Shown here one piece after another: positions 12,610-64,000 of a stretch of DNA of 64,000 bases. Numbering within the stretch: position 1 is the stretch's first letter; each line of letters opens with the position of its first letter. Both the position numbers and the translations under genes were made by a program. The stretch spans positions 86,411 to 150,410 of the forward strand of contig RGZB01000001.1 of NCBI GenBank assembly GCA_010031735.1, written 5' to 3'. A model generated the notes under the pieces. The model did no database searches and was not told where the DNA came from. It saw only the letters and a list, made by a program, of their open reading frames with translations. Origin of the DNA: Pseudomonadota bacterium (GTDB lineage Bacteria > Pseudomonadota > Alphaproteobacteria > Rickettsiales > RGZB01).

Positions 12610-12654
12610 CGCCCCGTATAATAGATAATAAAATGGGGCTTCATTCTTCCATGA

Positions 12655-13170: not shown

Positions 13171-13272
13171 AATCAGTCGATTAGGGGCTAAAATACTGAA
13201 AGTTGCGTTAATCACTGGAAATCCACCAAAAATTTGCTATGGTACGCACGACTCACGATACAGGTTTATGCC

Positions 13273-29716: not shown

Positions 29717-31899
29717 ATGTTCACAATCACCAAAAAATCTATCGAATGGGGTGGCCGCACGTTAGAGATCGAAAGCGGTCGTATCGCACGTCAGGCTACT
29801 GGCGCTGTTTACATTAAATACGGCAACACCTCCATGCTCTGCACGGCAGTCGCGAACAAAGAACCGAAAGCAGGCGTAGATTTCTTCCCGATGACGGTGA
29901 ACTACCAAGAGAAAGCATTCGCTGCTGGTAAAATCCCGGGTGGCTATTTCAAACGCGAAGGCCGTCCGACGGAAAAAGAGACGCTCGTCTCCCGCCTGAT
30001 CGACCGCCCGATCCGCCCGCTGTTCCCTGAGAACTTCTATAATGAAACACAAATCGTCGTGACCCTCCTCTCGCACGATCTGGAAAACGATCCGGATATC
30101 GTCGCGATGGTCGGTGCTTCTGCTGCACTCGCAATCGCTGGCATTCCGTTCCAGGATGTGATCGGCGCTGCGCGCGTTGGTTTCATCGACGGTGAATACG
30201 TACTGAACCCAACCATGCAACAGATGCCGGACAGCCGCCTCGACCTCGTCGTCGCTGCTACCGAATCGTCGGTGATGATGGTGGAATCCGAAGCGAAAGA
30301 ACTGACCGAAGAACAAATGCTCGGCGCCGTCGTATTCGGCCATAAGCAAATGCAACCGGTGATCAAACTGATCAATGACTTCGCAAAAGAATGCGGCAAA
30401 CCGAAATGGGAAGTGAAGAAAGTCGAGAAATCCGAACTCGAGAAACGTATCTATGCACTCGGCGAAAGCAAAATGCGCGATGCATACAAAGAAACCCAGA
30501 AACAAACACGCAGCCAGAAACTCGATGCACTCCGCACCGAGATCACGGAAGCGCTCGGCAAAGAATTCGGCACCAAAGAAGCGCCGATTGCAGGTAAAGA
30601 ACCGATCGACAGCAACACGGTGAAGAAAGCGATCAAAGGCTTAGAGAAAGACATCGTTCGCAACAACATCCTGAAAACCGGCTCGCGTATCGATGGCCGC
30701 GACACGAAAACCGTCCGTCCGATTCTGGCGGAAGTGGATTTCCTGCCGCAAACGCACGGCTCGGCACTCTTCACCCGCGGTGAAACGCAGGCGATCGTAG
30801 TGACGACCCTCGGCACGACGCAAGACGAACAGATGATCGACGCGCTCGAAGGCACCTATAACGAGCACTTCATGCTGCACTATAACTTCCCTCCGTACTC
30901 GAGATCACTGAATCAAACGGATCTTCTTCGATGGCAACGGTCTGCGGCACTTCTCTCTCCCTGATGGCAGCGGGCGTACCGCTCGCGCGTCCGGTGGCGG
31001 GTATCGCGATGGGCCTGATCAAAGAAGGTAAAGAGTTCGCTGTCCTCTCCGACATCCTGGGTGATGAAGATCACTTAGGGGATATGGACTTCAAAGTGGC
31101 AGGTACCGACGAAGGTATCACGGCGCTGCAGATGGACATCAAGATCAACGGCATCACCGCTGAGATCATGGAAATCGCGCTCGAACAAGCAAAAGCGGGC
31201 CGTATCCACATCCTCGGCAAGATGAACGAAGCACTTTCTGGTGCGCGTGAAGACCTGAACGAAAATGCTCCGAAAATCTCCACCATGACGGTGCCGAAAG
31301 ACAAGATCCGCGAAGTGATCGGTTCTGGCGGCTCTGTGATCCGCGATATCGTGGCGCAATCCGGCGCGAAAGTAGACATCAACGACGATGGCGTAATCAC
31401 CATTGCAGCCGTCAAAGGCTCGCAGGCGGAGAAAGCGATCGAGATGATCAAAGCGATCGCGGCGGAAGTCGAAGTCGGCACGATCTACACCGGTAAAGTC
31501 GTTCGTATCGTCGATTTCGGTGCATTCGTGAACCTGTTCGGCAAAACCGACGGTCTCGTTCACATCAGCGAACTGAAAGCGGAACGCGTGGGTCAGGTGA
31601 CCGACGTCGTGAACGAAGGCGATATGGTGAAAGTGAAAGTGATCGGCCTGGATAAAGGCAAGATCCGACTCTCCATGAAAGTGGTCGACCAGAACACGGG
31701 TGAGGATATCAGCTCGCAGTTCGGTGAGAACCCGCATGGCGAACCGCGTGGCGATCGTCCGCGCCGTGACCGTGATGACCGCCGTGGCGGTGGTGATCGC
31801 GACCGTGGCCCGCGTCGTGACCGTGATGGTGATGATCGTGGTAACCGCGATGGCGGTGAGTACGAAGACCGTCCGCGCAAACGCCGTAACAACGGTTAA
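29717..31899 (+). pseudogene. pnp: polyribonucleotide nucleotidyltransferase (PNPase), interrupted by an internal deletion/frameshift
   Basis: Two ORFs (29717-30964 and 30931-31899). HYNFPPYS is joined directly to (V)[17 protein letters not shown] in the +2 frame at about nt 30896-30903. About 43 residues present in E. coli PNPase (..VGE..GSPxRREIGHG..FPY..) are absent. Confidence 0.75.
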
Positions 31900-42800: not shown

Positions 42801-44399
42801 ATGCTGAAACTATTGCGTCATGAGCCTCGTTTATTGCTCTCCTGTATTTGTTCGCTACTCATCGTAGCAGCGTATTTCTTTCTGATACCCTGGACTCCTG
42901 CAGAAGATGCATTGATACTTTTTCAATACAGTGAGCATTTGGCTAACTTAGGCCGGATTGTATACAATATAACCGATCCCGCACCGGTCGAAGGTGCAAC
43001 GGATTTTCTCTGGATGCTCTCCCTCAGCTTACTCTACCGACTCGGTATCGATACGTTCGTAGCAGCAAAATGCCTTTCTGCATTGAGCCTGGCAGGCATT
43101 GTTGTCTTGTTGACAAAATTTGCCAGCACACCCAAAACGAAGCCGGCATCTTTATATTTGTTTTTTACCTGTATCATGTTGCTTCAGGTACCTGTGATAG
43201 CGGCAAGTACCGGTTTTTCGGTATGTACATTCGGTTTCTGTTTGCTGCTGACATTATGGTTTGCACGGCAAAAGCGTTTTTCCCCGATGATTCTGGCGGG
43301 GCTCATCACCTGTCTTATACGTCCGGATGGACTGCTCGTCATCGCACCTTTGGTGATAGGGTATTGTATCCGTTACAGGCACATGCTCACACGCAATGAC
43401 GTGTTCCTGCTGACGCTGGTGTTCATTGGCGGCATCGGCTATTTTCTGTGGCGTTGGCATTACTTCGGGCATTTCCTGCCACTGCCGTTCTATGTAAAAT
43501 CCGATGCTCCACGCCTATTCGGATTTATCAATAGAACTTCCTATTCCGCACTTGGCATCCTGCTCTTTCTGCTATCACCTGTCTTACTCTTCTATATCTG
43601 GCGACTGAAAAAGGAATACGATGCTTGTTGGTATTATGAAGCTCCCCTATTCATAGTACCTATTCTGTTTTATGGTGCTATGGAGCTTCAGCAGAATATC
43701 GCGTTGCGCTTTTTCTACCCTATCATACTCTGTCTTTTCGCATTGGCTGCTGCACATACACAGAAATATGTAAGGCAGTTGTTACTCGCATGTATTCTCT
43801 GTTGTGTAATACAATTCCCTTACTATACCAAAAGTCTTGAGCAAGTAACCAAGCCTCTCACCTCGCATCAAATAGGCCGGGCACTCGGCAGTTTAGAACA
43901 TAAAGGTGTACTACTCACAAGCGAGGCAGGTGGACTTTCCTATTATTCTGGCTGGCAACTTATAGATACATACGGGCTCAACACCCCCTCGATTGCTACA
44001 GGGGGTCTTACCCCAGATTTTATCCGGCAATCAAAGGCCGATCTTATCATCATAAGGGACTATCCTACCCCCCCGCATTTCAGGATGGACCGTTGGATCG
44101 GCATGCTGTCAACCATACACAAGGGCGTGGATTCCTCTAAGTATACACTCCTTTCCCTTCCACCAAGCGCGAGGTTTGGGCTCGTCTTACAAAACACCTC
44201 TTTCAGGGAATTCATCACCTCCACTCTCACTTTGGTAGGTGTACCACAGCATTTTATGAATTTTCTGTTTAGTTACCCCGGCGGCGAGGTCTTATTGGTA
44301 TGGGTGCGCAAAGATTCGCCGTATTATTCGCAACTCGAGCCGTTGATGATAGCAGAAGGTGCAACCCCTGTAATAAGACCCGAAATCTATAATAAATAA
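42801..44399 (+). CDS. hypothetical polytopic membrane protein (possibly ArnT/PMT-like glycosyltransferase fold)
   Basis: 532 aa with at least 10 hydrophobic segments and AT-richer codon usage. Family assignment is a guess. Confidence 0.6.
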   Translation: MLKLLRHEPRLLLSCICSLLIVAAYFFLIPWTPAEDALILFQYSEHLANLGRIVYNITDPAPVEGATDFLWMLSLSLLYRLGIDTFVAAKCLSALSLAGIVVLLTKFASTPKTKPASLYLFFTCIMLLQVPVIAASTGFSVCTFGFCLLLTLWFARQKRFSPMILAGLITCLIRPDGLLVIAPLVIGYCIRYRHMLTRNDVFLLTLVFIGGIGYFLWRWHYFGHFLPLPFYVKSDAPRLFGFINRTSYSALGILLFLLSPVLLFYIWRLKKEYDACWYYEAPLFIVPILFYGAMELQQNIALRFFYPIILCLFALAAAHTQKYVRQLLLACILCCVIQFPYYTKSLEQVTKPLTSHQIGRALGSLEHKGVLLTSEAGGLSYYSGWQLIDTYGLNTPSIATGGLTPDFIRQSKADLIIIRDYPTPPHFRMDRWIGMLSTIHKGVDSSKYTLLSLPPSARFGLVLQNTSFREFITSTLTLVGVPQHFMNFLFSYPGGEVLLVWVRKDSPYYSQLEPLMIAEGATPVIRPEIYNK

Positions 44400-44418
44400 G
44401 CCATGAAAGGCCTCGATA

Positions 44419-44450
44419 TTAACGAGCCATTAACCATTCTTCTTTATACT
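44419..44450 (+). promoter_or_regulatory. putative promoter of the 424-aa gene with perfect TTAA-N7-TTAAC(CAT) box
   Basis: TTAAcgagccaTTAACCAT. The upstream TTAACG lies N20 from TATACT. The -10 ends 9 nt before the ATG at 44460 (near-leaderless). Confidence 0.5.
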
Positions 44451-44459
44451 TGAGAGGAT

Positions 44460-45734
44460 ATGTTATCGCAGGACCCCAGAATCGTTGCTGAACTCAAATT
44501 GCACCAAGCGCATTCCCATGCGCTCGATGAACTTGCCAACCATAGTCAGGATAGAGATTTGAGTCATGGCAAGGTCGAGCCGATTCTATTCATGCTGTAT
44601 GAGCGCAATCAGGATGGTGAACCCGTTTACGAGAATCCACGTGCCATCACTGCGTTTTCTGAACGCGTATTCGTGCCGGTGGAACGCATCCCTTCTTTCA
44701 TGAAGATATCGGAAATGAACCGCGCACTGAAAAGTAGCGCCAAAGGGTCGCTGCCGCTTCTTTCACAAACCATAGATCTGATGCATGCGGATGGCGCGCG
44801 CAATATGGGCATGAAACTCGGCGGGATATTCTTGCCGCTCATCAATGAGGTGATCGGCCGCGACTTGATGCAAAGCCTTACCTTCCGCCGCAATACAGAT
44901 CGCACCATCATGCTTCAGGATGATCATCTGCTGACCGATAAAGAAATCGACGCACTGCGGGATGCCCGTCCGACTGCACTCGATATCACCGATGTCAGGG
45001 ACAAGACCTACAAACTACAGATAGATAACACGCACAAGCTCGGTGCGAAGGGGCATGGCCCCCTCGTCACGGCCGCCATGCTTTTCGACGCGGCACGTAT
45101 GTATCTCGGCCGCCCCAAAAGCTCGCAAGATAAAATACAAGAATATGTGGGCGTCAAGCTGGTAACGCAGAAAGCATTACTCGATCTACTCGATTACATG
45201 GGTTCAGCAATCGAGCGCTCGCCGGAAACAAAAGGCCTATCGCTTGAGGATTTCAGGTTAGCGCTTCCGCCTGCCATACTGCAATCGCTGAAGAAAGCTG
45301 AGCATGATGTACGCCGCCTGGATACAGGACTGCGGATCCATTACCCGGAAAGTACGCTATGCTTAGACAAGACCATGGAGTTCGGCAGGTTTGCAAAAGA
45401 ACCTTTTATCCCACAGACCGTGGAAGACATCGCTTTGATCGTTGCCGCCTCACGGAGTATCTTCCGCTATAGCCATCCTGCACGTACTGAGGATGACGTG
45501 CTGGAATTAGCCAATCGCGTCTCTTATGCCGGCAGTGTTACCGCTGCCGCAAAACTACTCGCAAGTGAGGATTGGTTCAGGGATTATCTGTCGCATCGTG
45601 CCCGTACAGCAGATACCGATATGGTAAGGGGCGCAGCGCTTGCGTACACTATCATCGACGGTATCGGTAAGCAGCCTGAACGTTTTAGCGAGCGTCCGCG
45701 TGAACCTTGGAAAACGGATGGTTTACCGGGCTAG
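44460..45734 (+). CDS. hypothetical protein (424 aa)
   Basis: Long ORF with no recognisable motifs. Its 3' end overlaps the convergent J-domain gene by 4 nt. Confidence 0.65.
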   Translation: MLSQDPRIVAELKLHQAHSHALDELANHSQDRDLSHGKVEPILFMLYERNQDGEPVYENPRAITAFSERVFVPVERIPSFMKISEMNRALKSSAKGSLPLLSQTIDLMHADGARNMGMKLGGIFLPLINEVIGRDLMQSLTFRRNTDRTIMLQDDHLLTDKEIDALRDARPTALDITDVRDKTYKLQIDNTHKLGAKGHGPLVTAAMLFDAARMYLGRPKSSQDKIQEYVGVKLVTQKALLDLLDYMGSAIERSPETKGLSLEDFRLALPPAILQSLKKAEHDVRRLDTGLRIHYPESTLCLDKTMEFGRFAKEPFIPQTVEDIALIVAASRSIFRYSHPARTEDDVLELANRVSYAGSVTAAAKLLASEDWFRDYLSHRARTADTDMVRGAALAYTIIDGIGKQPERFSERPREPWKTDGLPG

Positions 45735-46528
45735 CTCCCTTGCTCTGCCATCAGTTTGTTGAGCGCAATCATACTTTTCTTCAGCACGATCTCTCGTTCG
45801 GTTTTTTCCTTGATCACCTGCACCAAATCGATGCCGCGTCTGGCAGCGCCTTTCACCCGGCGCATGAGATGGAACTCGCTGGAAGCCTTCAAGAGACCAA
45901 TCTTTTCGGCGAACACTTCCTTATCGGCTTTGATGAGAGCAAGTTCGCGCTCTAGGCGTTCGAGTTTTTCTACGGGGTCTTCGCTGTAATCACCATCGAA
46001 TGCCACTTCTAAGCGCACCATCTTCTCTAGGTTACATTGCTGGTACGCCTCATGTACCATGGTGAACACTTTCGCGGCTGCATCACCATACTCCGATGTA
46101 TCCGGGTGGAATTGCTTCGCGAGTTTTTTATATACCCGCCTTGTTTCCTGCTTCTTCAGTTGCTCGATCACCTGCAGGTAATAGTCATCGTGCTGGGCGA
46201 GGTAGTATTCCGTCGCACCGACAGCAGCCAGCTCATTATGTTGTGATTGTGTGAGCGCTTTATCGAGTTCGGCAAGCTCATCGAACAACGTACCGACCCG
46301 CAGATAATATTCCTTCAGGAACTGGTTCAGTTCTTTTTGCAGGAATTCCTGCTCAGCCTGAAACAGCCGATGTTGGTAGATTTCCTTGCTGAGCTGCGAT
46401 TCCAGAAGCCGCGTGTGGTACGCTATCTCAGGCTGAATGCCGGAAATCGTCTGCTGGAAATTCACGCGCCACATCCTATTAGTAGTTGCTTCAATACAAG
46501 CATCTACCACATACAGTAGGTAAGTCAA
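45731..46528 (-). CDS. J-domain (DnaJ-like) protein
   Basis: RRVYKKLAKQFHPDTSEYGDAAAKVFTMVHEAYQ contains the HPD tripeptide in J-domain context. Coiled-coil-like flanks. Confidence 0.75.
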   Translation of the reverse strand: MTYLLYVVDACIEATTNRMWRVNFQQTISGIQPEIAYHTRLLESQLSKEIYQHRLFQAEQEFLQKELNQFLKEYYLRVGTLFDELAELDKALTQSQHNELAAVGATEYYLAQHDDYYLQVIEQLKKQETRRVYKKLAKQFHPDTSEYGDAAAKVFTMVHEAYQQCNLEKMVRLEVAFDGDYSEDPVEKLERLERELALIKADKEVFAEKIGLLKASSEFHLMRRVKGAARRGIDLVQVIKEKTEREIVLKKSMIALNKLMAEQGS

Positions 46529-46540
46529 AGTGATTTTATA

Positions 46541-47575
46541 TCAGCCGAAGGTCGTAGGCATCGATGCAAAGCCAGGCTCTTTGGACATGGCCGCGAGCTT
46601 CTCTCGGAAGTCTGCGTCATCGCCCAGTGCTATTTTGTAAGAAAGGGCGCATGCTAACAGTTCATCGACACTGCTGAACACCAATTGGCCGTTCTTGTTT
46701 GCTTTTGGATCAGGATTACTATCCTGACGGTATTTTGTATTTTTTACCGAATCTGCCCACTCTGCAAGTTCATCGGTAAATCCTTCGCGGATAAGTCCAC
46801 GACGAATCGCTTCTGGACTCAGGAAATCCGCCACCTCAAGGTGTGGAAAATATACGTTATAGATAGTTTTCACCAGATTGCCCGCATCTGTCTCCTGATA
46901 GATTGCAGAGTTCTTATCACCCAGTCGTAACAGGAATTCCTGTTCAGCCGCACGAATGACCATATGAAGAAGAATATTTCCCCAATCTTCTCCATATATA
47001 TCCTCTAGAATGTCTTTGATGAATCGGTTGTCACCCGCCACTTTAAATTCACCCCGAATGGAGGCAGCTATAGAACGACTGCGCTTCGTCTCTTCTTCTT
47101 CGATCGTGAGTGCAGAGAGTGTAAAGACGTTCTGCGTATGTAATTTACATCCATGGAACCGCTCTGCTGTTGCGATCTTCCGTGCGGCATAGACGAATTG
47201 GTTGAAGAGTGCGGCCGCTTCGTCGTCCACTTCTTTTTCATCGATAATGGGGGCTTCTTCAGTGCCCCCAGGTTTAGCTCGAAGCGAACGTTTCGCTTCC
47301 TCTAATTTCTTGTGTCTCAAATATTCCTGGAATCTCTCGTATACGATGGTCTCTTCCGCCAGTGCGGCATACATCCGCACGATATCACAGAAGGTATGTC
47401 CACTCACACGCTTGGATTTAAGATCATCACCATACATCTCTTTCGATTCCCGGAGCACATCCTCCGGAAGACGTTCGAGCGCATTCGCTATCAGTCTGTC
47501 GTCATCCGTCATGAAGCGGATATTCACAAAATTCTTGAGTAGATGGGCGGCGGCTGCTGCTGCAAGAATTGCCAT
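46541..47575 (-). CDS. hypothetical protein (344 aa), paralog of 47585-48502
   Basis: Shared N-terminal block ..YGDDLK..V..HTF.D.VRMYA.L.. with the upstream gene. Confidence 0.65.
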   Translation of the reverse strand: MAILAAAAAAHLLKNFVNIRFMTDDDRLIANALERLPEDVLRESKEMYGDDLKSKRVSGHTFCDIVRMYAALAEETIVYERFQEYLRHKKLEEAKRSLRAKPGGTEEAPIIDEKEVDDEAAALFNQFVYAARKIATAERFHGCKLHTQNVFTLSALTIEEEETKRSRSIAASIRGEFKVAGDNRFIKDILEDIYGEDWGNILLHMVIRAAEQEFLLRLGDKNSAIYQETDAGNLVKTIYNVYFPHLEVADFLSPEAIRRGLIREGFTDELAEWADSVKNTKYRQDSNPDPKANKNGQLVFSSVDELLACALSYKIALGDDADFREKLAAMSKEPGFASMPTTFG

Positions 47576-47584
47576 ATTGTGCCC

Positions 47585-48502
47585 TTACCGTAGCCTTATG
47601 CTGGCAGCACGCGCTAATATCGCCGCATGGTTCTCTGCATCTGCATTGAATGCGATTGCAGCCTTGATCAGGTTATCGAGTTTTGGGAACTTCTCTCGGC
47701 CGTCTTCCGTGGTTAATTGTTTTTTCATTGTTTTCCATGCCGCAAGAAGGCCTTCATGATTTTCTTCGACGTAGGATCTAATGCCCCCCACGGTAGAAGC
47801 ATATTCAACTGGAATTTGCGAAATATATGCGCACATATCTACAAGGACGTTCTGTGTTTTTGAGTCGACTTCTATACCCGCAAGTTCATATTGCTGTTCT
47901 TGTTTTGCTACGCGATTCACCAGACGAAGCAACATTTTCTTTACGTTGTTGGTGCCATCGAAAATATCATTAAGTACAGTCTTCATTGCAGGATTGCGCT
48001 GGCAGTCCCGGGTGCCGGTGAATTCGATATAAAGCAGATCGATAAGCGGCACATCGCATCGTGTTGATTGCTGATAAACCGTTGCAGTACTAAGCATCAC
48101 GGTATCGCCTGCCAGATCCACATCTTCGAATTTTTTGGATTTGGCAACTTCGCGTGCAGCGAATGAAAAGGCGTTGAATTTCTGACGCGCTTCCTCTAAT
48201 GCCTCCGCTTTGTCACCTTTCACAGGCAAACGGCGCTCCTCGTAAGCCACGAATTTCCTGAATATATCGGAGTTATCTATCCTGAGTTCCGCATACATCC
48301 TGACATAGTCAGCGAATGTATGGTTTTCGTATACACGTTTCAAGTCATCGCCGTAACGTGCACGGACCTCACGTAGAAGTTCTGGCCTCTCAAGCCCTAG
48401 GAATTTAATAGCAGCATCGTTGATTGCATCATCGCTGGCTGCTTTGATATTTAGCCTATCCGCTAGAATATTAGAGGCAGTCGCAGCAGGTAGTTTCGCC
48501 AT
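47585..48502 (-). CDS. hypothetical protein (305 aa), paralog of 46541-47575
   Basis: ARYGDDLKRVYENHTFADYVRMYAEL versus EMYGDDLKSKRVSGHTFCDIVRMYAAL. First gene of a 3-gene minus-strand operon. Confidence 0.65.
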   Translation of the reverse strand: MAKLPAATASNILADRLNIKAASDDAINDAAIKFLGLERPELLREVRARYGDDLKRVYENHTFADYVRMYAELRIDNSDIFRKFVAYEERRLPVKGDKAEALEEARQKFNAFSFAAREVAKSKKFEDVDLAGDTVMLSTATVYQQSTRCDVPLIDLLYIEFTGTRDCQRNPAMKTVLNDIFDGTNNVKKMLLRLVNRVAKQEQQYELAGIEVDSKTQNVLVDMCAYISQIPVEYASTVGGIRSYVEENHEGLLAAWKTMKKQLTTEDGREKFPKLDNLIKAAIAFNADAENHAAILARAASIRLR

Positions 48503-50434: not shown

Positions 50435-50465
50435 GAACAGATACTACTCCTTTTTATAAAGGCGG

Positions 50466-50495
50466 CCTTCACTGGCCGCCTTTATTTTTTTGAAT
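50466..50495 (+). terminator. intrinsic terminator of carD
   Basis: ATAAAGGCGGCC-ttcact-GGCCGCCTTTAT + TTTTTTT. Confidence 0.85.
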
Positions 50496-50519
50496 CTTAT
50501 TTTCTGAGCTTAAAAAGCC

Positions 50520-50555
50520 GAAGCCCGACGCCCCCTCGTGGGTGCGCCGGGCTTC
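50520..50555 (-). terminator. intrinsic terminator of cassette C9
   Basis: Gene-sense GAAGCCCGgCG..CGtCGGGCTTC + GGCTTTTTAAG, 8 nt after the stop codon. Confidence 0.7.
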
Positions 50556-50563
50556 AAGACTTT

Positions 50564-50872
50564 TTACTCGAGGTCAGAGCCCTCGAGCTCCGGAGTCGTC
50601 CGGAATTTGATCTTCTTGCCGCCGATCACGATCTTGAACTCGTCGCGCGTTACGGTGACTACTTGCGTCACCTCATCAGCCCACGCGACCGACTCCATCT
50701 CGTTGCCATCGACGAGCATCACGACCTCTTTGTTCTTGGTCGTGATGAAAAACTTGGTTTTCGGGTTCTCCCAGAACTGGGATGGGCGGATATGAACTTT
50801 CTTACCCTGTTTGCCCCGCCCCTTGACATCATCACCTTCGATGATGATGCCGTCGGGAAGTTCGATTCGCAT
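50564..50872 (-). CDS. hypothetical small protein, cassette C9
   Basis: 102 aa. Strong SD AAGGAGGG. Codons mostly G/C-ending but less extreme than C1-C7. Confidence 0.7.
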   Translation of the reverse strand: MRIELPDGIIIEGDDVKGRGKQGKKVHIRPSQFWENPKTKFFITTKNKEVVMLVDGNEMESVAWADEVTQVVTVTRDEFKIVIGGKKIKFRTTPELEGSDLE

Positions 50873-51168
50873 CGCCCTTCCCTCCTTTCATACTGTCAGG
50901 CCTTAGTCTCGTGGCCTATAACTCTCCGTGAGTTATAAGCGGGCGGTGGCTGATTTTGCCGGATGTTTGCCCTTTTCACGAAAAGTACCTAACATACTGA
51001 ATATACCGTCTAATTATGAACCTCGTGTGACACGATATAATAGCCTGATAAATATAGGATATTTACAGCAGATGTCCTAGGCTCCACTAAACTTCCAGCA
51101 CACAAGCCTTCCTTTTGACAGAGGCATTTTTTTGGTGCATAACAACCCAACTTTCAAAGGAAAAAGAC

Positions 51169-52494: not shown

Positions 52495-53904
52495 TTAGAC
52501 GCTGTAGTAGTTGAGGTATTCGATCGGATGCGGGGTATGCTCGCAATCGTACACTTCTTTCATCTTCAGTTCGATATAAGCATCGATCAGGTCGTCCGTG
52601 AACACGTCGCCTTTTTTAAGGAACGCGCGGTCAGCAGAGAGGTTCTCGAGTGCTTCACGCAGTGAGCCGCATACCTGGCTGATACCTTTGCGTTCTTTTG
52701 CCGGCAGATCGTACAGGTTCTTGTCCATCGCTTCACCCGGGTGGATTTTCTTCTCGATACCATCGAGGCCCGCCATGAGCATCGCAGCGAATGCGAAGTA
52801 TGGGTTCGCCGTCGGATCCGGGAAGCGCACTTCGATACGTTTGGCTTTCGGGCCTGCCACGTACGGGATGCGGATCGAAGCCGAACGGTTACGGGAAGAG
52901 TATGCCAGCATCACTGGCGCTTCAAAACCTGGGATCAGGCGTTTGTAGCTGTTGGTGGAAGCGTTCGTGAACGCGTTCAGTGCTTTTGCGTGTTTGATGA
53001 TACCGCCGATGTAGAACAGCGCGGTCTCAGACAGATCGGCATAACCATTGCCCGCGAAGAGCGGCTTGGTGCCTTTCCAGATGGACTGGTGCACGTGCAT
53101 GCCCGAGCCGTTATCGCCCAGGATCGGCTTCGGCATGAAGGTCGCCGATTTGCCGTACGCATGTGCCACGTTGTGCACGACATATTTATATTTCTGCACG
53201 TTGTCAGCGGTGCCGACGAGCGTACCGAAATCGAAGCCAAGCTCATGCTGTGCCGGTGCGACTTCGTGGTGGTGGATGCGCGGACGAAGGCCCACTTGTT
53301 GCAGCACGGTCAGCATCTCCGCACGCAGGTCATTGCCGGAGTCAACCGGTTGTACCGGGAAGTAACCACCTTTGACGCGCGGACGGTGGCCATGGTTGCC
53401 CATTTCATATTCGCGGCCGGAGTTTTTCGGCGATTCTTCAGAATCGAGTTCCACGACAGAACCGTTCATGTGTACATCGAAGCGCACGTTATCGAATACG
53501 AAGAATTCCAGTTCCGGGCCGAAGAATGCTTTATCACCGATGCCGGTGTATTGCAGGTATGCTTCTGCACGTTTCGCGGTCGAGCGCGGGTCACGGGCAT
53601 AACCTTGGCCGGTGTTCGGTTCGATCACATCGCAGAATACCACCAGGGTCGGTTGCGCGGTGAACGGGTCGAGGAAGGCAGAGCCAAGATCCGGTTGCAG
53701 GATCATGTCGGATTCATTGATGTCTTTCCAGCCGGAGATCGAAGAACCATCGAACATGATGCCTTCGGAGAGGAGACCTTCATCCACATATTCGGCCATC
53801 TGCGTCGTATGCTGCCATTTACCTTTGGTATCGGTAAAACGGAAATCGATGAATTTTACATCGTGTTGTTTGATCAGATCGAAGATTTTCTTGGCGTCGG
53901 ACAT
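52495..53904 (-). CDS. glnA: glutamine synthetase type I
   Basis: 469 aa from the ATG at 53904 (AGGGA SD). GSGMHVHQS motif. Adenylylation-loop region NLYDLP. Confidence 0.95.
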
Positions 53905-54052
53905 AGTTTCCCTGTCAAAATGGTGGTTGGCGCTTTTCACCGCTGTACGGCTCGGGACTACTTCCTAACGAATCTCTGTCCAAAAATAAAGTGAAATGTT
54001 TGTTTTCCGCGAGACTTTCTCTCTATCCGGCCAGGCATATACCCCCAAACGA

Positions 54053-54080
54053 AAAACGGCGGGTCAAAGCCCGCCGTTTT
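54053..54080 (-). terminator. intrinsic terminator of the phasin gene
   Basis: AAAACGGCGGG-tcaaag-CCCGCCGTTTT. Confidence 0.8.
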
Positions 54081-54104
54081 CGATTACTTCAGCTTATCCG
54101 CCGA

Positions 54105-54770
54105 TTATTTTTTGAGGTCTGCCGTGAAAGCATCCGCAACCTTCTCAGAGGCTTCGGAGATGCTACGGTTGATCGGCTCAGCGGCTTTCGCGAAATCAAC
54201 GCAGTATTGCGCGATGTTCGAGAAGCGGTTGATACCTTGGTCGAGGCTGTTTTTCAGGAAATCGCTTTGCAGTTGGAAAAAGTCGCTTGCCGTTTTGCAG
54301 CTGAGGAATTTTTCAAATGCCTTGAATTGTTCGGAGAGGATCGTGTTCGAGAATTCGCTGATCTCGTTGCCGATCGATTGTGCCACTTCCGCCGCGATGT
54401 CTGCGGATTCTTGCGCAGCATCAGATTGGATACGGCTGATTTCAGCCCATTCGCCACTGTTGCCGAGAGCAGAAGCAGCGGTGTTGAAGAATGCCTCTAC
54501 CGCTGCGCGGCCTTGTTCGAACGCGTTGTTCTGTGCTTGTTCGATATGGCTTACATCACCCCAGACAGCGCTGGTGGTGAAAGCGGTTTTTTGCGCTTTC
54601 TCTTCATATTCGCTGATTTTCGCTTGTTTGGAGGGAGTCGAAGGACCGTCTATTGCGGTGATGCTTGCTTTCAAAGCTGCTTCACGGACTGCGGAAGAAG
54701 ATTTCGCGCCGTCTTTATTTCTAGCCTGAGTTGCATTCTTTCTAGCTTCTTGATTCATAAACCTCTCCAT
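54105..54770 (-). CDS. phasin-family (PHA granule-associated) protein
   Basis: Ala/Glu/Gln-rich helical protein. ..KTASDFFQLQSDFLKNSLDQ.. resembles the phasin_2 core. Confidence 0.7.
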   Translation of the reverse strand: MERFMNQEARKNATQARNKDGAKSSSAVREAALKASITAIDGPSTPSKQAKISEYEEKAQKTAFTTSAVWGDVSHIEQAQNNAFEQGRAAVEAFFNTAASALGNSGEWAEISRIQSDAAQESADIAAEVAQSIGNEISEFSNTILSEQFKAFEKFLSCKTASDFFQLQSDFLKNSLDQGINRFSNIAQYCVDFAKAAEPINRSISEASEKVADAFTADLKK

Positions 54771-54879
54771 GATACATCGAAAAAAATCTGTGCACGCTTA
54801 TACCACTAGTTACACCAGTTTGCAAGGCAATTACCGGACATTTTTAAGAGTTTATGACTTACTTATGTCAAAAGCCCAG

Positions 54880-57822
54880 CTACTTATTATTTTCTGATTT
54901 CGGGGATATCCACTCGTCCAGGCGCTGGATATAATCTAATTCTTTGATATTTTTAGATTTATCTTTAAAAGGGCGTGCATAATAAGGATGCGCCTCATCC
55001 AGGTAGGCGCTTAATATTTTAACAATCTCTGGTTGTATATTAGCCACACCCGATTCGGCCTTTACAGAGTCTCCGCTGGTGAATGCGTTGCCGAGTCGGT
55101 AGTAGATCATCTCTGCGGGTACCCCATGCACTGCCGTTCCAAAACCTGCATGTGCCAGTATCAGCCCTTCGAGCAACAATTGGGGGGAGAATCCCTGCTG
55201 GATATCCGCGCGCGTGGGAAGTCCACCCGTCTTAAAGTCGATGAGGGTGACATTGCCGTCCTTCCCGATCTCCAACCTGTCTGCCTTGGCCTTGAGCTCC
55301 ACCGTTTTCCCCGCCTCCGTCTTTATTTCTGCCTCACCCAATATCTCAGAATGGATACTCCTTCCGGTGCTGCGTGTCTCAGTATCGTATGCCACGAACC
55401 AGTGTGCGATCGCCTCTATCCTTGGCCACCATAAGGTATGGATGGAGGGTCGCGCCTCGAACCTCGAGAATGCTTCTGCTGCCAATTGCAGGAATAAGAC
55501 CTCTCCCTCACCGACACTCGCCGGCGGTTTTATGTTCGCTTGTTTGGTATAGCTATCGATCACAGCATGGATCAGTGAACCGAGGTCCGCCGCATCCGCT
55601 TCACTATCGATGGTGTCAAGCGGCCTCAGCTTAAGCAGATGGCGTACATAATAGAGATAGGGATTGCGCATCAGCGTCTCGAATTGCGTAGCATAGATAC
55701 TATGCGGCCGTGTACCAAGGGGTGGGTTTGCCACCGGCGGCGCGATGCCATGCATACCTTCGCTCTTCGGTGTGAAATACTCGCGTGCGGCATTCACCAG
55801 GCTTTCCCCATTGTAAACCTGTTCTTTTAAGCCCAATTTCTTAAGCACCACCTCAAGACGCATCAGCCACATCGATGGCATGGTCGGCGTACCCTCCACT
55901 TTGGCGGCGCGGGTGATCATCACCTCACGCGCGAAACAGAAGCTCACGAAATCATGTGCAGAAAGTCCGAGTTTGATTTCACTGCCGTTCATACCGAACT
56001 GGGATGCCATGGGCCTGCTCATCCATGCGCTCGATTCAAGCACCGGCCAACTGCCCTGGTTCATACCTGCGAGTATCATCATATCGAAGGAAAGTAACCG
56101 TGCCTCGATGGGGCTCAAGATCGTCAGTGCCGGATGTTGGCCGTAGGCTTTGCGGTAGATCGCACCGGCAAAGAGTGTCTCGAGGAGTTTGGTGTAATTA
56201 CACACCTCCGCCCGCGTGAACGCAGGGGCGGATGCATTCAGTGCCTGCAGGAATTCCCATGCGCGCTCACCTTCCTCACTACCCCATAAGCGCATGACAC
56301 CCGATTCTGTATCCGTGGCCGCGAGATTTTCAGCAAGCGCCAGATGGGCATGAAGGAGGGCCTTTAATGGCGCATGGTCTTCTTTGAATAGCTCACTGAA
56401 AGAAAGGGCGAGCGTATGAATCCGTTCAAGCCATTTCGCCAGCGCAGGGAGCTTCTGTTCCTCTAAGAGTGCGATCATTCCTGCCAGACCACCCACCACA
56501 CGCGGGCCTCGCAGCAATGCCACTTCGCATGCACGTACCTCTGCCCGGAAAGCAGCGGCGGATTGCCCTGCCGAACAGAGAGGATGTTTGAAGAGTGCCA
56601 GCATCTCCATGGGGGCGAACTGGGCCTGCACGGCCTCTGCCACCAATCGCACGAACACCATCGGGGTCGTGAGAAGCAGTGGCACACCCGCCGAATCGTC
56701 GACCACCACATCCCACACCCGCATGAGTGAAGAGACACGCCGCGCAAGCGCACGGTCGGTCGTGACCAAGCACGCTGTCTTGCCTTCTGTCTCGAGCACC
56801 TGGCGCAATTGCACGGCGATGACCGCCGCCTCTTCCTCCTGCGTTTCCGTTTCCACCACCATAAAATCTCGGGTGGCTTTCGGCGCGAGAGATTGAAGCG
56901 TTTGCCATGCACCGATGGTTTCGGTGGGGCGCATCACTTCCCTCATCAACTCCCCGCGTGCAGAAATATCCTTGCTGCCGCTTACCCATTCCGGGATTTT
57001 CAGGCGATCAACCCCGATGGTCTTGATCAACTGTTTGAGCGCATATTGCGGATGGTCCTCCTGCAGGATATTCCAGCTCGCTTCATCGATACCGGTATCG
57101 AGCGCTGAAAGCACCACCGCCCCTTGTTTCATGGATGCGATGGCCTTCAACAATTGTGCGGTGGCCGGGATACTACCCGTTGAACCCGCCGCAATCACCG
57201 GGTGCGTGGGCGGCGATTTTTCCCACTGCTCGACCTGCTTCTGCATGAGCAGGTTTTTCCGCCGCCATGTGTCGACAGCACCGCGCTTGGTAAGCTCTTC
57301 CTGCCAACGCTTCGGCAGTTCATATAAGAAACCAAGCGAGGTCTGCCAGTGCGCCGATAGTTCTGCCGGCACGATGTTCGGCAACTGGTCCCACGAAAGT
57401 TGTTCGCGCTCCACCTCATCGATGAAATGCCCGAGTTCGATCGCAAGCTGCAAGGCATGGTGATCACCGATGCCATACGGATTCTGCTGCATGCCATATT
57501 CCTTCACCAACTTCGTGAGGAGCAAGCGACGTTCCTGTGGTGCGATGGCAGGCGGGATATCGAGTGCGGCATCTGCATGCACGTGCAGCTCTTCTTCCTC
57601 CACATCACCGATACCGCGCATGATGGGTAGTAATGCCGCCTTACAACCCAGCACCGCCAAGAATGCTTTCGAGAGCGCACGCGCCGAACGGCGGTTCGGA
57701 AGCAGGATCGTAATCTGTGATAGGGTAAGCGGATCAGTGCCGTAACGTGCGACCACCCCTTCAGCCAATTGCTTCAGGAAATCACCTTCTGCAGGGATAT
57801 GAAAGATATTCTTAATATTCAT
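54880..57822 (-). CDS. addB: double-strand break repair protein AddB (alphaproteobacterial type)
   Basis: 980 aa. N-terminus IFHIPAEGDFLKQLA. C-terminal PD-(D/E)xK nuclease region ..DRLEIGKDGNVTLIDFKTG... No addA gene adjacent in this window. Confidence 0.85.
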   Translation of the reverse strand: MNIKNIFHIPAEGDFLKQLAEGVVARYGTDPLTLSQITILLPNRRSARALSKAFLAVLGCKAALLPIMRGIGDVEEEELHVHADAALDIPPAIAPQERRLLLTKLVKEYGMQQNPYGIGDHHALQLAIELGHFIDEVEREQLSWDQLPNIVPAELSAHWQTSLGFLYELPKRWQEELTKRGAVDTWRRKNLLMQKQVEQWEKSPPTHPVIAAGSTGSIPATAQLLKAIASMKQGAVVLSALDTGIDEASWNILQEDHPQYALKQLIKTIGVDRLKIPEWVSGSKDISARGELMREVMRPTETIGAWQTLQSLAPKATRDFMVVETETQEEEAAVIAVQLRQVLETEGKTACLVTTDRALARRVSSLMRVWDVVVDDSAGVPLLLTTPMVFVRLVAEAVQAQFAPMEMLALFKHPLCSAGQSAAAFRAEVRACEVALLRGPRVVGGLAGMIALLEEQKLPALAKWLERIHTLALSFSELFKEDHAPLKALLHAHLALAENLAATDTESGVMRLWGSEEGERAWEFLQALNASAPAFTRAEVCNYTKLLETLFAGAIYRKAYGQHPALTILSPIEARLLSFDMMILAGMNQGSWPVLESSAWMSRPMASQFGMNGSEIKLGLSAHDFVSFCFAREVMITRAAKVEGTPTMPSMWLMRLEVVLKKLGLKEQVYNGESLVNAAREYFTPKSEGMHGIAPPVANPPLGTRPHSIYATQFETLMRNPYLYYVRHLLKLRPLDTIDSEADAADLGSLIHAVIDSYTKQANIKPPASVGEGEVLFLQLAAEAFSRFEARPSIHTLWWPRIEAIAHWFVAYDTETRSTGRSIHSEILGEAEIKTEAGKTVELKAKADRLEIGKDGNVTLIDFKTGGLPTRADIQQGFSPQLLLEGLILAHAGFGTAVHGVPAEMIYYRLGNAFTSGDSVKAESGVANIQPEIVKILSAYLDEAHPYYARPFKDKSKNIKELDYIQRLDEWISPKSENNK

Positions 57823-57835
57823 TATATATCAATAT
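57819..57835. repeat. 17-nt block TCATTATATATCAATAT, identical copy at 62699-62715
   Basis: Read directly. Both copies lie at the left edge of a plus-strand cassette unit and are followed by TTAAC-containing sequence. The first copy contains the addB start codon. Confidence 0.85.
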
Positions 57836-57989
57836 GTTAATATGGTTAACTTGTAACAATAGTTTCACGTAAACCTAGCATGGATTTGCTAATATAGAAC
57901 TGGTTTTTCTCTGTTGGTGTTAGTGTTCTGTTCCACACCTTGTCTCACTCGTATGGTATTCGAGTGAAGACGCATCGGAGTACGGTCGA

Positions 57990-58292
57990 ATGGTTACGAT
58001 CCACATGTTCACAGCAGAGCTCGCAGCTCTCGAACACGGGCAAACGGTTACGAAGGGCAGCGTCACGATCAGCCTCGAAAACGTGCCGAACACCACGACG
58101 ATCAAGCTCAACGAGCAGCAGTTCGCAGATTTGACGCTGAGCACAAACGTCGAGGTGGCAGGGTACAAGCTGATCGCGCCGGACAAGAAGAAGGCTCCGC
58201 ACGACCCGATCATCGGTAAGATGCTCCCAGCGCAGGGCGAACCCATGGATAACCCGCCGATCGATGGCGCGGGTAACCCGGGCTGGCTGTGA
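57990..58292 (+). CDS. hypothetical small protein, GC3-rich cassette C10
   Basis: 100 aa, GGAG upstream, G/C-ending codons. The two antisense ORFs over the same DNA look like shadow frames. Confidence 0.65.
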   Translation: MVTIHMFTAELAALEHGQTVTKGSVTISLENVPNTTTIKLNEQQFADLTLSTNVEVAGYKLIAPDKKKAPHDPIIGKMLPAQGEPMDNPPIDGAGNPGWL

Positions 58293-58349
58293 CAAAGATT
58301 AGCCCAAGAAAAGAAGACTTAACCGGATTGGGCCCCGGTTAAGCACATG

Positions 58350-58380
58350 AAACCCCACGACCGTAAGGTTCGCGGGGTTT
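58350..58380 (+). terminator. intrinsic terminator of cassette C10 (conserved tail)
   Basis: AAACCCCaCGAcC-gtaa-GgTTCGcGGGGTTT + TGTGTTTTTAGGGC. Preceded by a second hairpin CTTAACCGG..CCGGTTAAG (58318-58343). Confidence 0.7.
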
Positions 58381-58395
58381 TGTGTTTTTAGGGCA

Positions 58396-58626
58396 TTAAA
58401 GCTTGGTGATTTTGTTTTTGCGGTTCGCGATCAGGTCGAACACGCGTTGCACCACATAATTCACCACCAGGATAATAGCCGCCAGCGCGATGGCATAAAG
58501 CGCCGTGATAATCGTAAGCGCTGCAAAAAGATACAGCACCCCGATAAATATCACCAGCAGGCATACCCCTTTAAGCGTGATCGGCATACGTTTACCTGTG
58601 ACAACGAAACGCACGGACTCTTTCAT
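58396..58626 (-). CDS. hypothetical small membrane protein (76 aa, 2 TM)
   Basis: ATG immediately follows the uvrA stop. Host-like codon usage. Two hydrophobic helices. Confidence 0.55.
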   Translation of the reverse strand: MKESVRFVVTGKRMPITLKGVCLLVIFIGVLYLFAALTIITALYAIALAAIILVVNYVVQRVFDLIANRKNKITKL

Positions 58627-62166: not shown

Positions 62167-62688
62167 ATGAGATATCTCGCAATTTTGCTGGTATTCATGC
62201 TGTGCGCTTCGTGCGCCACGATGGAACGCGCCTCCGCACCGCCCGAGATGAAGGGCAAGGTCGAGCGCGCCGATAAGATCGTCGTGTTCAAAAAGCGCCG
62301 CACGATGTATCTCATGCAGGACGGTCAATCCATCCGCAAATACCCGATCTCCGTGGGTCGCAACCCCGTAGGACAGAAGATCAAGAAAGGTGATCAGCGC
62401 ACGCCGGAAGGCCTGTATCGCATCATCAACAAAAAGCCGCACAGTATCTATTACCGCTCGCTGCAGATCTCCTACCCAAACGCGACCGACATCGCCAATG
62501 CGCGTAAACGTAAAGTGAATCCGGGTGGCGATATCGTCATCCACGGCTTTAAACGCGGGCGCGATGCGTTCGATAAAGAGATCGATTATTTCGACTACAC
62601 CGACGGCTGCATCCGCGTCAGCAACGCCGATCTCGACGAAATCTGGTCGCTTGTGCCCATCGGCACCCCCATCCAGATCAATCCATAA
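62167..62688 (+). CDS. L,D-transpeptidase (YkuD domain) protein
   Basis: Signal peptide. HG..GCIRVSNADLDEIW catalytic Cys motif. The ORF-track TTG start is 3 nt upstream. Confidence 0.85.
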   Translation: MRYLAILLVFMLCASCATMERASAPPEMKGKVERADKIVVFKKRRTMYLMQDGQSIRKYPISVGRNPVGQKIKKGDQRTPEGLYRIINKKPHSIYYRSLQISYPNATDIANARKRKVNPGGDIVIHGFKRGRDAFDKEIDYFDYTDGCIRVSNADLDEIWSLVPIGTPIQINP

Positions 62689-62698
62689 TTAATAATTA

Positions 62699-62715
62699 TC
62701 ATTATATATCAATAT
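62699..62715. repeat. second copy of 17-nt block TCATTATATATCAATAT
   Basis: Identical to 57819-57835. Confidence 0.85.
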
Positions 62716-62725
62716 ATTATATCGT

Positions 62726-62769
62726 TTAACATATATTTAACATTATTTTATTGTTATTTATGGCATAGT
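62726..62769 (+). promoter_or_regulatory. putative promoter of C11 with perfect TTAA-N7-TTAAC box
   Basis: TTAAcatatatTTAAC (62726-62741), then TTAACA-N21-CATAGT. The 26-nt block CGTTTAACATATATTTAACATTATTT recurs at 63453-63478 (25/26 identical). Confidence 0.5.
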
Positions 62770-62978
62770 GTCTTTGCATTTTACCACACGTGGTTTCAGA
62801 ACAGGGTCCGTTCTCTTTTTATTCTTCCCCCAACCAAAACAACACACGGGAAGATACGCTGCAGCAAAGCCATACCAGGACAACGATCTCCATGAGAGAT
62901 TTACCGGTATACGTAGGCTAGCTGAAGTAGAGAGAATCGATCCTGTTGCTGAAACCACTTCGGAAAGCGAGGTGGAAA

Positions 62979-63374
62979 ATGCAGACCATGATCCTGTTGG
63001 GCGGCAAGTTGACGATCCAGGCCTGCGAGTTGGAGAACGCCTTCGGCCTCATCGTCAACGGTGAGACGCGGAGCGTCAGCAAGTACCCGCACCCGCACGT
63101 GCCGACGCCGAAGGAGATCGACGCGGCGGTGCAGACGGCGATCGACTTCCTGATCAGCCAGGGCTACGACATCACGATGCCGCTGCCGGTCGAGGAGATC
63201 ACGCCGCTCGACGAGGTGCTGGACGCCATCCCGGTGGACAGCGACGTGATGCTGGTCCCCGACGACGACGTGATCGACCTGGGCAAGGAGCTGCTCGAGG
63301 GCGGCACGACCGAGGAGAAGCCGGACGACAACGAGATGTTCGGGGGCTACAAGCACCCCTGGGACAACGAGTAA
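62979..63374 (+). CDS. hypothetical acidic protein, GC3-rich cassette C11
   Basis: 131 aa from the ATG at 62979 (GAGGTGG SD). The ORF-track TTG at 62946 lies in the lower-GC leader. G/C-ending codons. Confidence 0.7.
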   Translation: MQTMILLGGKLTIQACELENAFGLIVNGETRSVSKYPHPHVPTPKEIDAAVQTAIDFLISQGYDITMPLPVEEITPLDEVLDAIPVDSDVMLVPDDDVIDLGKELLEGGTTEEKPDDNEMFGGYKHPWDNE

Positions 63375-63395
63375 CAACTGACTGAGTGACCTACA

Positions 63396-63427
63396 GAGGG
63401 CTTCGTGGATTAAACCACGAGGCCCTC
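63396..63427 (+). terminator. intrinsic terminator of cassette C11
   Basis: GAGGGCtTCGTGG-attaaa-CCACGAgGCCCTC + GCCTTTTCTAGGGTAT. The pre-stem ACCTACAG is shared with 63933-63940. Confidence 0.7.
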
Positions 63428-63455
63428 GCCTTTTCTAGGGTATCTCCACCTACGT

Positions 63456-63498
63456 TTCACATATATTTAACATTATTTCCCTGTGATTTATATATAAT
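63456..63498 (+). promoter_or_regulatory. putative promoter of C12: TTcA-N7-TTAAC, TTAACA-N20-TATAAT
   Basis: TTAACAttatttccctgtgatttataTATAAT. One mismatch to the full box. Confidence 0.5.
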
Positions 63499-63631
63499 GA
63501 AGGCTCGTCCATACCGTTAGGTTACAGAGCCCAGAACATCCGGTTCTTCCAGAGAATCCCAAAAGCCAGTCAGAAACTGTGCTCCGGGTGCTATGGATCT
63601 GTGCCTACCAACACGAAGGGTTGGTGTCGAG

Positions 63632-63886
63632 ATGGTGATGGTGTACGGCTGGAGCTGGTGGATGTACCTGCTGGTGTTCCCGTTCTTCTACAAGCAGTAC
63701 TGGGTGAAGATGGCGGGCGGGAAGTGGTGTACGGTGGAGAAGTTCGTTCGCGCCTACCCGCACGAGCAGCCCTGCATCTGCAAGAAGATCGGCAACCTGT
63801 GGGTGATCACCGACGTGTTCTACCTGAACAAGCAGCACCAGGTGGTGAAGTTCCACCACGAGCCGCCGCTGATGATCGACGACTGA
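63632..63886 (+). CDS. hypothetical Trp/aromatic-rich small membrane protein, GC3-rich cassette C12
   Basis: 84 aa from the ATG at 63632 (MVMVYGWSWWMYLLVFPFFYKQYW..). The 13 codons upstream of it (ORF-track start 63593) are not GC3-rich, so the exact start is uncertain. Confidence 0.55.
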   Translation: MVMVYGWSWWMYLLVFPFFYKQYWVKMAGGKWCTVEKFVRAYPHEQPCICKKIGNLWVITDVFYLNKQHQVVKFHHEPPLMIDD

Positions 63887-63939
63887 CAGATTCCCTACTC
63901 TGAACACGACAGAGTCTAAAAAAATGTGGAGAACCTACA

Positions 63940-63968
63940 GGGGGCGTCGTGCGAAAGCACGGGCCCCC
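63940..63968 (+). terminator. intrinsic terminator of cassette C12
   Basis: GGGGGCgtCGTGC-gaaa-GCACGgGCCCCC + GACATTTTTTAGGGTGTG. Confidence 0.7.
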
Positions 63969-64000
63969 GACATTTTTTAGGGTGTGCAATGCACCATCAT

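Follow-up and report, generated by a model that had tools for sequence, protein, structure and literature searches.

Tandem orphan mini-genes with shared control modules and CtrA-type promoter boxes in an uncultured alphaproteobacterium

Organization of the C11-C12-C13 array

This study concerns three small tandem genes, C11, C12 and C13. The first two lie at the end of a 64,000-nt stretch of contig RGZB01000001.1 (assembly GCA_010031735.1), which was analyzed as a whole and is referred to as the window; the third lies just beyond it. C11 is EB060_00745 in NCBI, described there as 'MAG: hypothetical protein [Proteobacteria bacterium]' (MAG, metagenome-assembled genome). The array is placed between ykuD, encoding an L,D-transpeptidase, and a convergent response-regulator gene, with ssb and ykuD on the C11 side and the response-regulator gene on the far side.

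All features of C11 and C12 are on the plus strand. The C11 unit begins with an AT-rich promoter region (62689..62776) containing a perfect CtrA-type box, TTAAC-N6-TTAAC (TTAACATATATTTAAC, 62726-62741), and a candidate -10 element, CATAGT (62764-62769), which would put the start of transcription at about 62776-62777. A 5' leader of about 200 nt (62777..62978) follows, which is homologous to the C13 leader and predicted to fold into a structured rod. The open reading frame (ORF) at 62979..63374 encodes 131 amino acids, has an isoelectric point of 4.06, a net charge of -20 and a G+C fraction at third codon positions (GC3) of 0.98, and ends in ..DDNEMFGGYKHPWDNE. The unit closes with an intrinsic terminator with a T-rich tail (63389..63436). 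The promoter region of C12 (63446..63505) carries a box with one mismatch (TTCACATATATTTAAC, 63456-63471) and the candidate -10 element TATAAT (63493-63498). Its leader of about 125 nt (63506..63631) is unrelated to that of C11 and C13. The ORF at 63632..63886 encodes an orphan protein of 84 amino acids with 18 Trp, Tyr or Phe and three Cys (isoelectric point 8.8, GC3 0.96) and is followed by an intrinsic terminator (63933..63978) with a T-run at 63973-63978.

The preliminary description of this DNA had reported a duplicated promoter core and homologous terminators around two unrelated ORFs, one very acidic and the other rich in aromatic residues with three Cys, and all of these features were recovered. 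The only two copies of the 26-nt core, CGTTTMACATATATTTAACATTATTT, lie at 62723-62748 and 63453-63478 and agree in 25 of 26 positions. Allowing up to three mismatches gave no third match in the window, and 0.00 matches were expected from 100 shuffles. The similarity stretches to 39 nt at 87% (repeat family D1). The 19-nt terminator arm ACCTACAGRGGGCKTCGTG likewise matches only twice, at 63389-63407 and 63933-63951 (0.01 expected), and each copy lies on the 5' arm of a strong hairpin, one at 63396-63427 (C11; -28.7 kcal/mol, z -4.4) and the other at 63940-63968 (C12; -29.3 kcal/mol, z -3.8). Each hairpin has a 13-bp stem followed by a T-run; as GC-rich stem-loops with a T tract after a stop codon, both have the form of intrinsic (Rho-independent) terminators.

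The window ends 32 nt past the C12 hairpin, within the start of the C13 promoter region (63979..64000). The expectation that the array might go on was borne out by metagenome contigs L004, L006 and L092, which run past position 64000 and reveal exactly one further unit, consisting of a box (TTCACAATAAGTTCAC), a leader of about 180 nt, an ORF of 86 amino acids (EB060_00755) and a hairpin terminator. The array then ends with the convergent response-regulator gene, which encodes a single-domain protein of 123 amino acids with ordinary codon usage. It had been stated beforehand that ordinary genes and no further units next to the array, together with a promoter unique to this locus, would speak against a wider modular system. 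The 26-mer is indeed confined to the C11/C12 locus and an ordinary gene does follow, but only after one further unit; what the other cassettes described below share with this promoter is a short box of the transcription-factor type.

A second repeat is found upstream of the C11 box, where the 16-mer CATTATATATCAATAT also occurs in the intergenic region between another cassette, Ci, and an addB-like nuclease gene (repeat D4). It lies within a 48-nt AT-rich stretch with 75% identity between 57808-57855 and 62688-62735, and the copy at 57808-57855 overlaps the divergent addB-like gene at its start codon. The common stretch suggests that a divergent promoter region of this kind was the source from which the DNA upstream of C11 was copied.

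Further cassettes and codon usage

A GC3 scan of the window identified eleven small ORFs at GC3 0.75-0.98, starting or ending at positions 3449, 3989, 4652, 10145, 11059, 11787, 12655, 50564, 57990, 62979 and 63632. Each is preceded by an AT-rich stretch and a leader of 100-290 nt and followed by a strong hairpin with a T-tract, an anatomy for which we use the term cassette. About 50 core genes have GC3 values of 0.39-0.73. At least nine of the units lie outside the C11-C13 array, at 3355-5253, 10040-13233, 50435-51114 and 57823-58395, mostly on the minus strand. Their ORFs encode 84-188 amino acids at GC3 0.75-0.95 and have an AT-rich promoter, a long leader and a hairpin terminator; all those searched are orphans. 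Three such units and an unannotated ORF of 515 amino acids part pyrB from pyrC. The units are not gathered in one island but dispersed over five or more separate intergenic sites.

The codon usage of the cassettes differs strongly from that of the core genes, with shares of 0.88 vs 0.37 for AAG, 0.82 vs 0.34 for GAC and 1.00 vs 0.44 for TAC. GGG and CGG are tripled and GAG is also strongly raised. The idea that high GC3 reflects high expression was rejected, since GC3 is no more than 0.63-0.69 in the highly expressed nusA and infB, and GGG and CGG, which are rare codons, are raised as well. The codon usage looks like foreign or GC-driven composition and not like optimization linked to expression.

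A CtrA-type box in the cassette promoters

The full binding motif of CtrA, a response regulator of the alphaproteobacterial cell cycle, is TTAA-N7-TTAA(C), with the ungapped variant TTAACCAT, and sites lie near -35 in activated promoters (PMC6180460). The duplicated 26-mer includes this motif, as a perfect TTAA-N7-TTAAC in C11 and as TTCAC-N6-TTAAC, with one mismatch, in C12; their position relative to the start of transcription is predicted. The C13 box reads TTCAC-N6-TTCAC. Pairs with the same 11-bp phasing, pointing to the ORF, are present at Ca (3886-3901), Cb (4521-4536), Cg (13155-13170) and Ci (57853-57868), as well as at an unannotated gene for a 160-residue protein (TTAACCTTTTCTTCAC, 10031-10046, minus strand). 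At Cf, the box TTAACGACCCGTTAAC (12471-12486; 12471-12487 as a palindrome) can be read as the full motif on both strands, and beside it a further site in the Cf/Cg intergenic region (12483-12498, plus strand) also points towards a gene. The ungapped variant TTAACCAT is found ahead of Cc and Cd.

The frequency of these motifs was compared with per-segment Markov simulations of the intergenic DNA (n = 1000). TTAA-N7-TTAAC occurs seven times in intergenic DNA against 0.18 expected, a relaxed bipartite box 11 times against 0.24 and TTAACCAT five times against 0.39, and the observed number was not reached in any of the 1000 simulations for any of the three. TTAAC on its own shows no enrichment there (31 occurrences vs 22.8 expected). 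Of the 12 cassettes, 10 are preceded by the bipartite box or by TTAACCAT, compared with only 6 among 53 other genes (p = 2e-6, Fisher test). Every intergenic box points towards a downstream gene, as judged by eye from the match tables, and the sole match within a gene is a relaxed one at 60401, inside uvrA. Apart from the C11/C12 pair, the box is the only sequence that the cassette promoters have in common, a pattern to be expected of a transcription-factor site and not of common descent.

In the array, the candidate -10 hexamers (CATAGT for C11, TATAAT for C12 and TAAAAT for C13) were picked by eye and lie 21-22 nt after the box; those of C11 and C13 end about 7 nt ahead of the start of the conserved leader structure. 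From this we infer that the box is located at about -50 to -35 in all three units, without a good -35 hexamer.

Two other box-bearing genes were noted. The ORF of 160 amino acids (9526-10046, minus strand) has no Pfam or NCBIfam match and a -10-like hexamer, TAGTAT, about 7 nt ahead of its ATG; its mRNA may be translated leaderless. At 44419-44437 (plus strand), a full box overlaps TTAACCAT (TTAACGAGCCATTAACCAT), 23 nt upstream of an unannotated ORF of 424 amino acids. This ORF is part of a block of five (42801-48502) with low GC3 (0.45-0.60), for which no family matches were obtained except for one DnaJ domain.

Structure of the C11 and C13 leaders

The leaders of C11 and C13 are predicted to be unusually stable. 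For the C11 leader (221 nt, about 62770-62990) the folding energy is -87 kcal/mol, compared with -50.6 ± 4.5 kcal/mol for shuffled sequences (z -8.1), and for the C13 leader it is -77.3 kcal/mol (z -6.5). The two fold into one architecture of 48 base pairs in seven helices, all of which are kept in both. Eight pairs are compensatory, with both sides changed, five of these within one 11-bp helix, and none is broken. When the partner column was moved by 1-3 positions as a control, pairing fell to 37-52%.

In the outermost helices of the predicted rod, the conserved 5' block UUUUACCAC..GUGGUUUCAG pairs with CUGAAACCAC and with the Shine-Dalgarno (SD) sequence GGUGG, the A-rich spacer and the AUG, such that the 5' end of the leader (UUUUACCAC) is tied to the SD/AUG region (GGUGGAAAAUG). 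The C11/C13 leader thus plausibly occludes the ribosome-binding site. The C12 leader is only moderately structured (z -1.3) and has no similarity to the other two.

Rfam 15 gave no match to the leader at gathering thresholds in a search of the whole window, and a permissive search gave only sub-threshold matches, at the C12 3' end and terminator. A covariance model of the leader found only C11 and C13 in the window plus 1.49 Mb of loci, comprising about 80 alphaproteobacterial uvrA loci and the short contigs of this population itself. A search of JGI metagenomes with a 19-mer of the leader gave no match, and a 17-mer had one chance match, inside a phage coding region in IMG/VR. Unusual stability was also found for the leader of Cc (4946-5119, minus strand; -78.8 kcal/mol over 200 nt, z -4.7), which shows no sequence similarity to the C11/C13 leader.

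Shared parts among the cassettes

Module-by-module local alignments, scored against shuffles, gave opposite patterns for the two neighbours of C11. Against C12, the z-scores of C11 were 10.5 for the promoter, -0.4 for the leader, 2.9 for the ORF and 12.9 for the terminator, while against C13 they were 2.3, 26.9, 6.4-7.6 and 1.9, respectively. C11 matches C12 in its flanks and C13 in its interior, and flanks and interior therefore have separate histories. This fits a conserved frame in which the interior was exchanged or recombined, as far as can be judged from the alignments. Within the C11 protein, the N-terminal domain is related to C13, and the acidic C-terminal part of about 55 residues with its FGGY motif (..DLGKELLEGG..DNEMFGGY) matches the tail of Ce (..DLLKELGEAP..TDNFGGY) at both the DNA and the protein level. 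Ce (11059-11487, minus strand) lies 52 kb away. By sequence comparison, C11 is thus a four-piece mosaic, with promoter and terminator like those of C12, leader and N-domain like those of C13 and a tail like that of Ce.

Similar sharing of parts was found in other cassettes. Cb and Cd have a terminator of about 60 nt in common (z 24) and unrelated ORFs, and leader plus N-terminus are common to Ca and Cf and to Cd and Ce. The terminators of Cb (3900-3985) and Cd (10055-10140), both on the minus strand, read CACACGCGAACCTTCCAC...GGTGGAAGGTTTTCGTGTTTT and have folding energies of -43 and -47.5 kcal/mol. Neither a recombinase or transposase nor an att-like junction was found across the 64 kb. The simplest mechanism would be duplication combined with homologous or illegitimate recombination among paralogous units.

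Encoded proteins

The C11 and C12 proteins have no similarity to each other. C12 is basic and aromatic-rich, with an N-terminal hydrophobic and aromatic segment whose best 19-residue hydropathy (1.38) lies under the usual transmembrane threshold. An upstream ATG at 63593 was considered as the start of C12 and is unlikely, because the 13 added codons have a GC3 of about 0.46 vs 0.96 in the remaining ORF.

Homologs were sought in large collections. Searches with C11, with C13 and with a Cd/Ce profile gave self-matches only among 5.8 billion proteins. With C12, phmmer over 1.84 billion representatives returned the protein itself and two repeat proteins, which were dismissed as repeat-inflated artefacts in view of their 10 and 7 short matching stretches; one of them resembles translated tandem-repeat DNA. 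The cassette ORFs had nothing significant in Pfam, PHROGs, PADLOC, PDB sequences, or phage and plasmid collections. A few sub-threshold matches to PHROGs of unknown function (E 0.006-0.07) did not include C11. Searches of 50,697 phage records with tblastn gave no match, and no relative was found in IMG/VR. AlphaFold models were too poor for use (pLDDT 55 and 49). Judged by their sequences, the cassette proteins are lineage-specific small proteins, of which C11 and C13 appear acidic and soluble and C12 is possibly membrane-associated through its aromatic segment.

Interpretation and alternative explanations

Taken together, C11, C12 and C13 appear to be separately transcribed, moron-like orphan mini-genes placed in a core chromosome. 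Our favoured explanation, which we consider slightly more probable than not, is that of insulated orphan mini-genes co-regulated through a CtrA-type box, some with an SD-occluding leader, that evolve by duplication and module shuffling. Phosphorylated CtrA, or another winged-helix response regulator that prefers the same site, would bind the box and switch on C11-C13 together with about ten similar cassettes in the window; for CtrA itself as the regulator, our confidence is lower than for the picture as a whole. Translation of C11 and C13 would be gated additionally by the base of the rod, which ties the 5' end to the SD and AUG, and the ribosome-binding site would be exposed only upon melting, upon processing (e.g., by RNase III) or when a factor binds. 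A strong intrinsic terminator would insulate each unit from the next, and the duplicated promoter and terminator would have arisen by local duplication and recombination among cassette paralogues.

Several observations weigh against this explanation. No ctrA gene is among the genes identified in the 64-kb window, the boxes of C12 and C13 deviate from the consensus by their TTCAC half-sites, and several non-cassette genes outside the classical CtrA targets (ccmC, mlaA) carry the box as well. The spacing between box and -10 element varies among the cassettes (about 7, 10 or 21-22 nt), with start sites and -10 elements having been chosen by eye in AT-rich DNA. The leader structure was derived from the same two sequences that it is used to compare, and its SD-closing helix is short, with four GC-rich pairs and an A-U stretch, which means that repression may be weak. 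Furthermore, promoters and leaders look native and the ORFs foreign, leaving the source of the codon bias unexplained, and all data come from a single population, represented by one MAG and near-identical metagenome contigs.

The simplest competing account is plain tandem duplication followed by divergence, in which the shared flanks are leftovers and the box is the usual -35 or UP-like promoter sequence of the host, without any co-regulation or exchange. C11 and C13 are clear paralogues, as are the pairs Cd/Ce and Ca/Cf; TTAAC resembles a degenerate TTGAC -35 element, and the box is present at some core genes too. Uniform divergence, however, fails to explain why C11 matches C12 in the flanks only and C13 in the interior only, or why its tail matches a cassette 52 kb off. 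A common -35 element also does not account for a single TTAAC being unenriched when the 11-bp-phased pair is enriched about 40-fold, or for the strong concentration of the box on cassettes. We regard this account as fairly unlikely. A more radical extension of our favoured explanation seems to us unlikely as well, and slightly more so: a recombinase-free 'plug-in' system in which a response-regulator box promoter and an insulating terminator form a standard frame employed at many intergenic positions, leader-plus-ORF cargos with foreign composition and even sub-domains like the FGGY tail are swapped by short-homology recombination, and the C11/C13 leader represents a new class of translational gate. 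If it were true, the cell would possess a fast-changing repertoire of orphan proteins timed by the cell cycle or by signals. The earlier proposal of a modular chassis with exchangeable cargo can be kept in part, in that shared control modules around unrelated ORFs are real and belong to separate promoter-leader-ORF-terminator units, but the exact 26-mer is unique to one locus and no recombinase or att-like junction was found in the 64 kb.

Site-specific capture at attC-like hairpins, as in an integron- or rAID-like array, would also place tandem small unrelated ORFs among recurring non-coding modules. Here each such ORF is indeed followed by an imperfect palindrome, and cargo varies between conserved flanks. 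Integron cassettes are usually promoterless, and attC sites have the boundary consensus RYYYAAC...GTTRRRY. The units described here each possess a promoter and a terminator of their own, and their hairpins are perfect GC stems with a U-tract, i.e., terminators, lacking that boundary. No tyrosine recombinase was found across the 64 kb, and the units are dispersed instead of forming a single array beside an attI site, which makes this origin the least credible of those considered. It had further been suggested that C12 may be a small membrane toxin with C11 as its possible immunity protein or antitoxin, and C12 might also be a type I toxin controlled by its own leader. The charges would suit such a pair, as C12 is basic with an aromatic and hydrophobic N-terminus and C11 is very acidic, and type I toxin mRNAs can have long structured leaders that hide the SD. 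This suggestion found no support. A strong terminator and a separate promoter between C11 and C12 predict that the two are not co-transcribed in an operon, and the true relative of C11 is C13. Neither protein matches a known family (Pfam, PADLOC, PHROG, PDB). It is C11 and C13, not C12, that carry the SD-hiding leader, and among the other cassettes the majority stand alone or are paired with acidic proteins of similar kind. As a type I toxin, C12 would be long (84 amino acids vs <60) and weakly hydrophobic, and no antisense (minus-strand) promoter was predicted in its unit. We therefore consider a toxin role of either type very improbable.

Among the products of phage accessory genes, small acidic orphan proteins are typical. 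The cassettes could accordingly be remnants of a prophage or mobile element, i.e., morons or early genes left after decay, or stem from an unsampled phage or gene transfer agent of high-GC source. Morons have their own promoter, their own terminator and a GC content unlike that of their neighbours (PMC3594210), and the small accessory ORFs found here fit this sequence definition. In addition, alphaproteobacterial phages reportedly use CtrA sites (PMC9437464). The units differ from phage morons in lying between core chromosomal genes (pyrB/pyrC, uvrA, ssb, ykuD, addB-like, carD) at several sites and not in one island, and in having long structured leaders and a common regulator-type box. Neither an integrase nor any structural gene of a phage was found across the window, the best PHROG E-value (0.006) is not significant, and the phage and IMG/VR searches returned no homologs. 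A phage origin is thus distinctly unlikely in our view.

The favoured explanation, of co-regulated orphan mini-genes, can also be compared with known regulatory systems. The box resembles CtrA promoters in motif sequence, 11-bp phasing, co-orientation with the gene, the occurrence of gapped and ungapped variants, and its predicted position upstream of or overlapping the -35 region. It differs in that the putative targets are orphan mini-genes, and not flagellar, pilus, division or methylation genes, and in the TTCAC variants of C12 and C13; the link to CtrA comes from the motif. SD-sequestering leaders are otherwise represented by RNA thermometers (fourU/ROSE) and by the inactive primary transcripts of type I toxins (tisB/zorO). 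As in these, the long C11/C13 leader is predicted to pair the ribosome-binding site, with a U-run pairing the A-rich spacer before the AUG. The rod is far larger (about 200 nt, 48 bp, with long-range 5'-3' closure), matches no Rfam family, and in C11 precedes a gene for an acidic protein of 131 amino acids, unlike the heat-shock proteins and short hydrophobic toxins of those systems. It is a candidate new RNA element.

If the favoured explanation is right, an alphaproteobacterial chromosome of the free-living type gathers many moron-like orphan genes outside prophages, wired into one regulon via a short CtrA-type box and diversified by module shuffling, which would bear on how new genes are acquired, insulated and put under host control. 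The GC3 values near 1.0 in the ORFs might stem from horizontal origin, biased gene conversion or selection.

Genomic context and additional observations

The gene content of the window is that of an ordinary alphaproteobacterial chromosome. Its core genes include glnE, pyrB, pyrC, folP/folK, mlaAC, metF, rimP-nusA-infB, pnp, argD/argF, asd, rluD, rpoH, ccmC, carD, pyrF, glnA, the addB-like nuclease gene, uvrA, ssb and ykuD. The source population is an uncultured, deep-branching alphaproteobacterium; its uvrA has at most 68% identity to any genome among the matches listed for the species representatives of GTDB. A YkuD-based scan of JGI metagenomes found no syntenic relatives.

The DNA of the window recurs at 99.8-100% identity in several independent metagenome assemblies with identical junctions, which rules out an assembly chimera. 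Several metagenome contigs start or end exactly inside the repeated promoter core, and evidently this repeat breaks short-read assemblies at the C11/C12 locus. At positions 1-10 of L004 and L006, compared with 63455-63464 of the window, a C-to-A difference changes TTCAC to TTCAA.

Two further genes are variable or interrupted. Contig L008, compared with 53271-58625 of the window, has a 19-nt indel, and its addB-like gene consists of two ORFs (532 and 471 amino acids) in place of the intact ORF of 980 amino acids in the window. The pnp gene for polynucleotide phosphorylase (29717-31899, plus strand) is read as two overlapping ORFs, 29717-30964 and 30931-31899, which suggests a frameshift, from either a sequencing error or a pseudogene.

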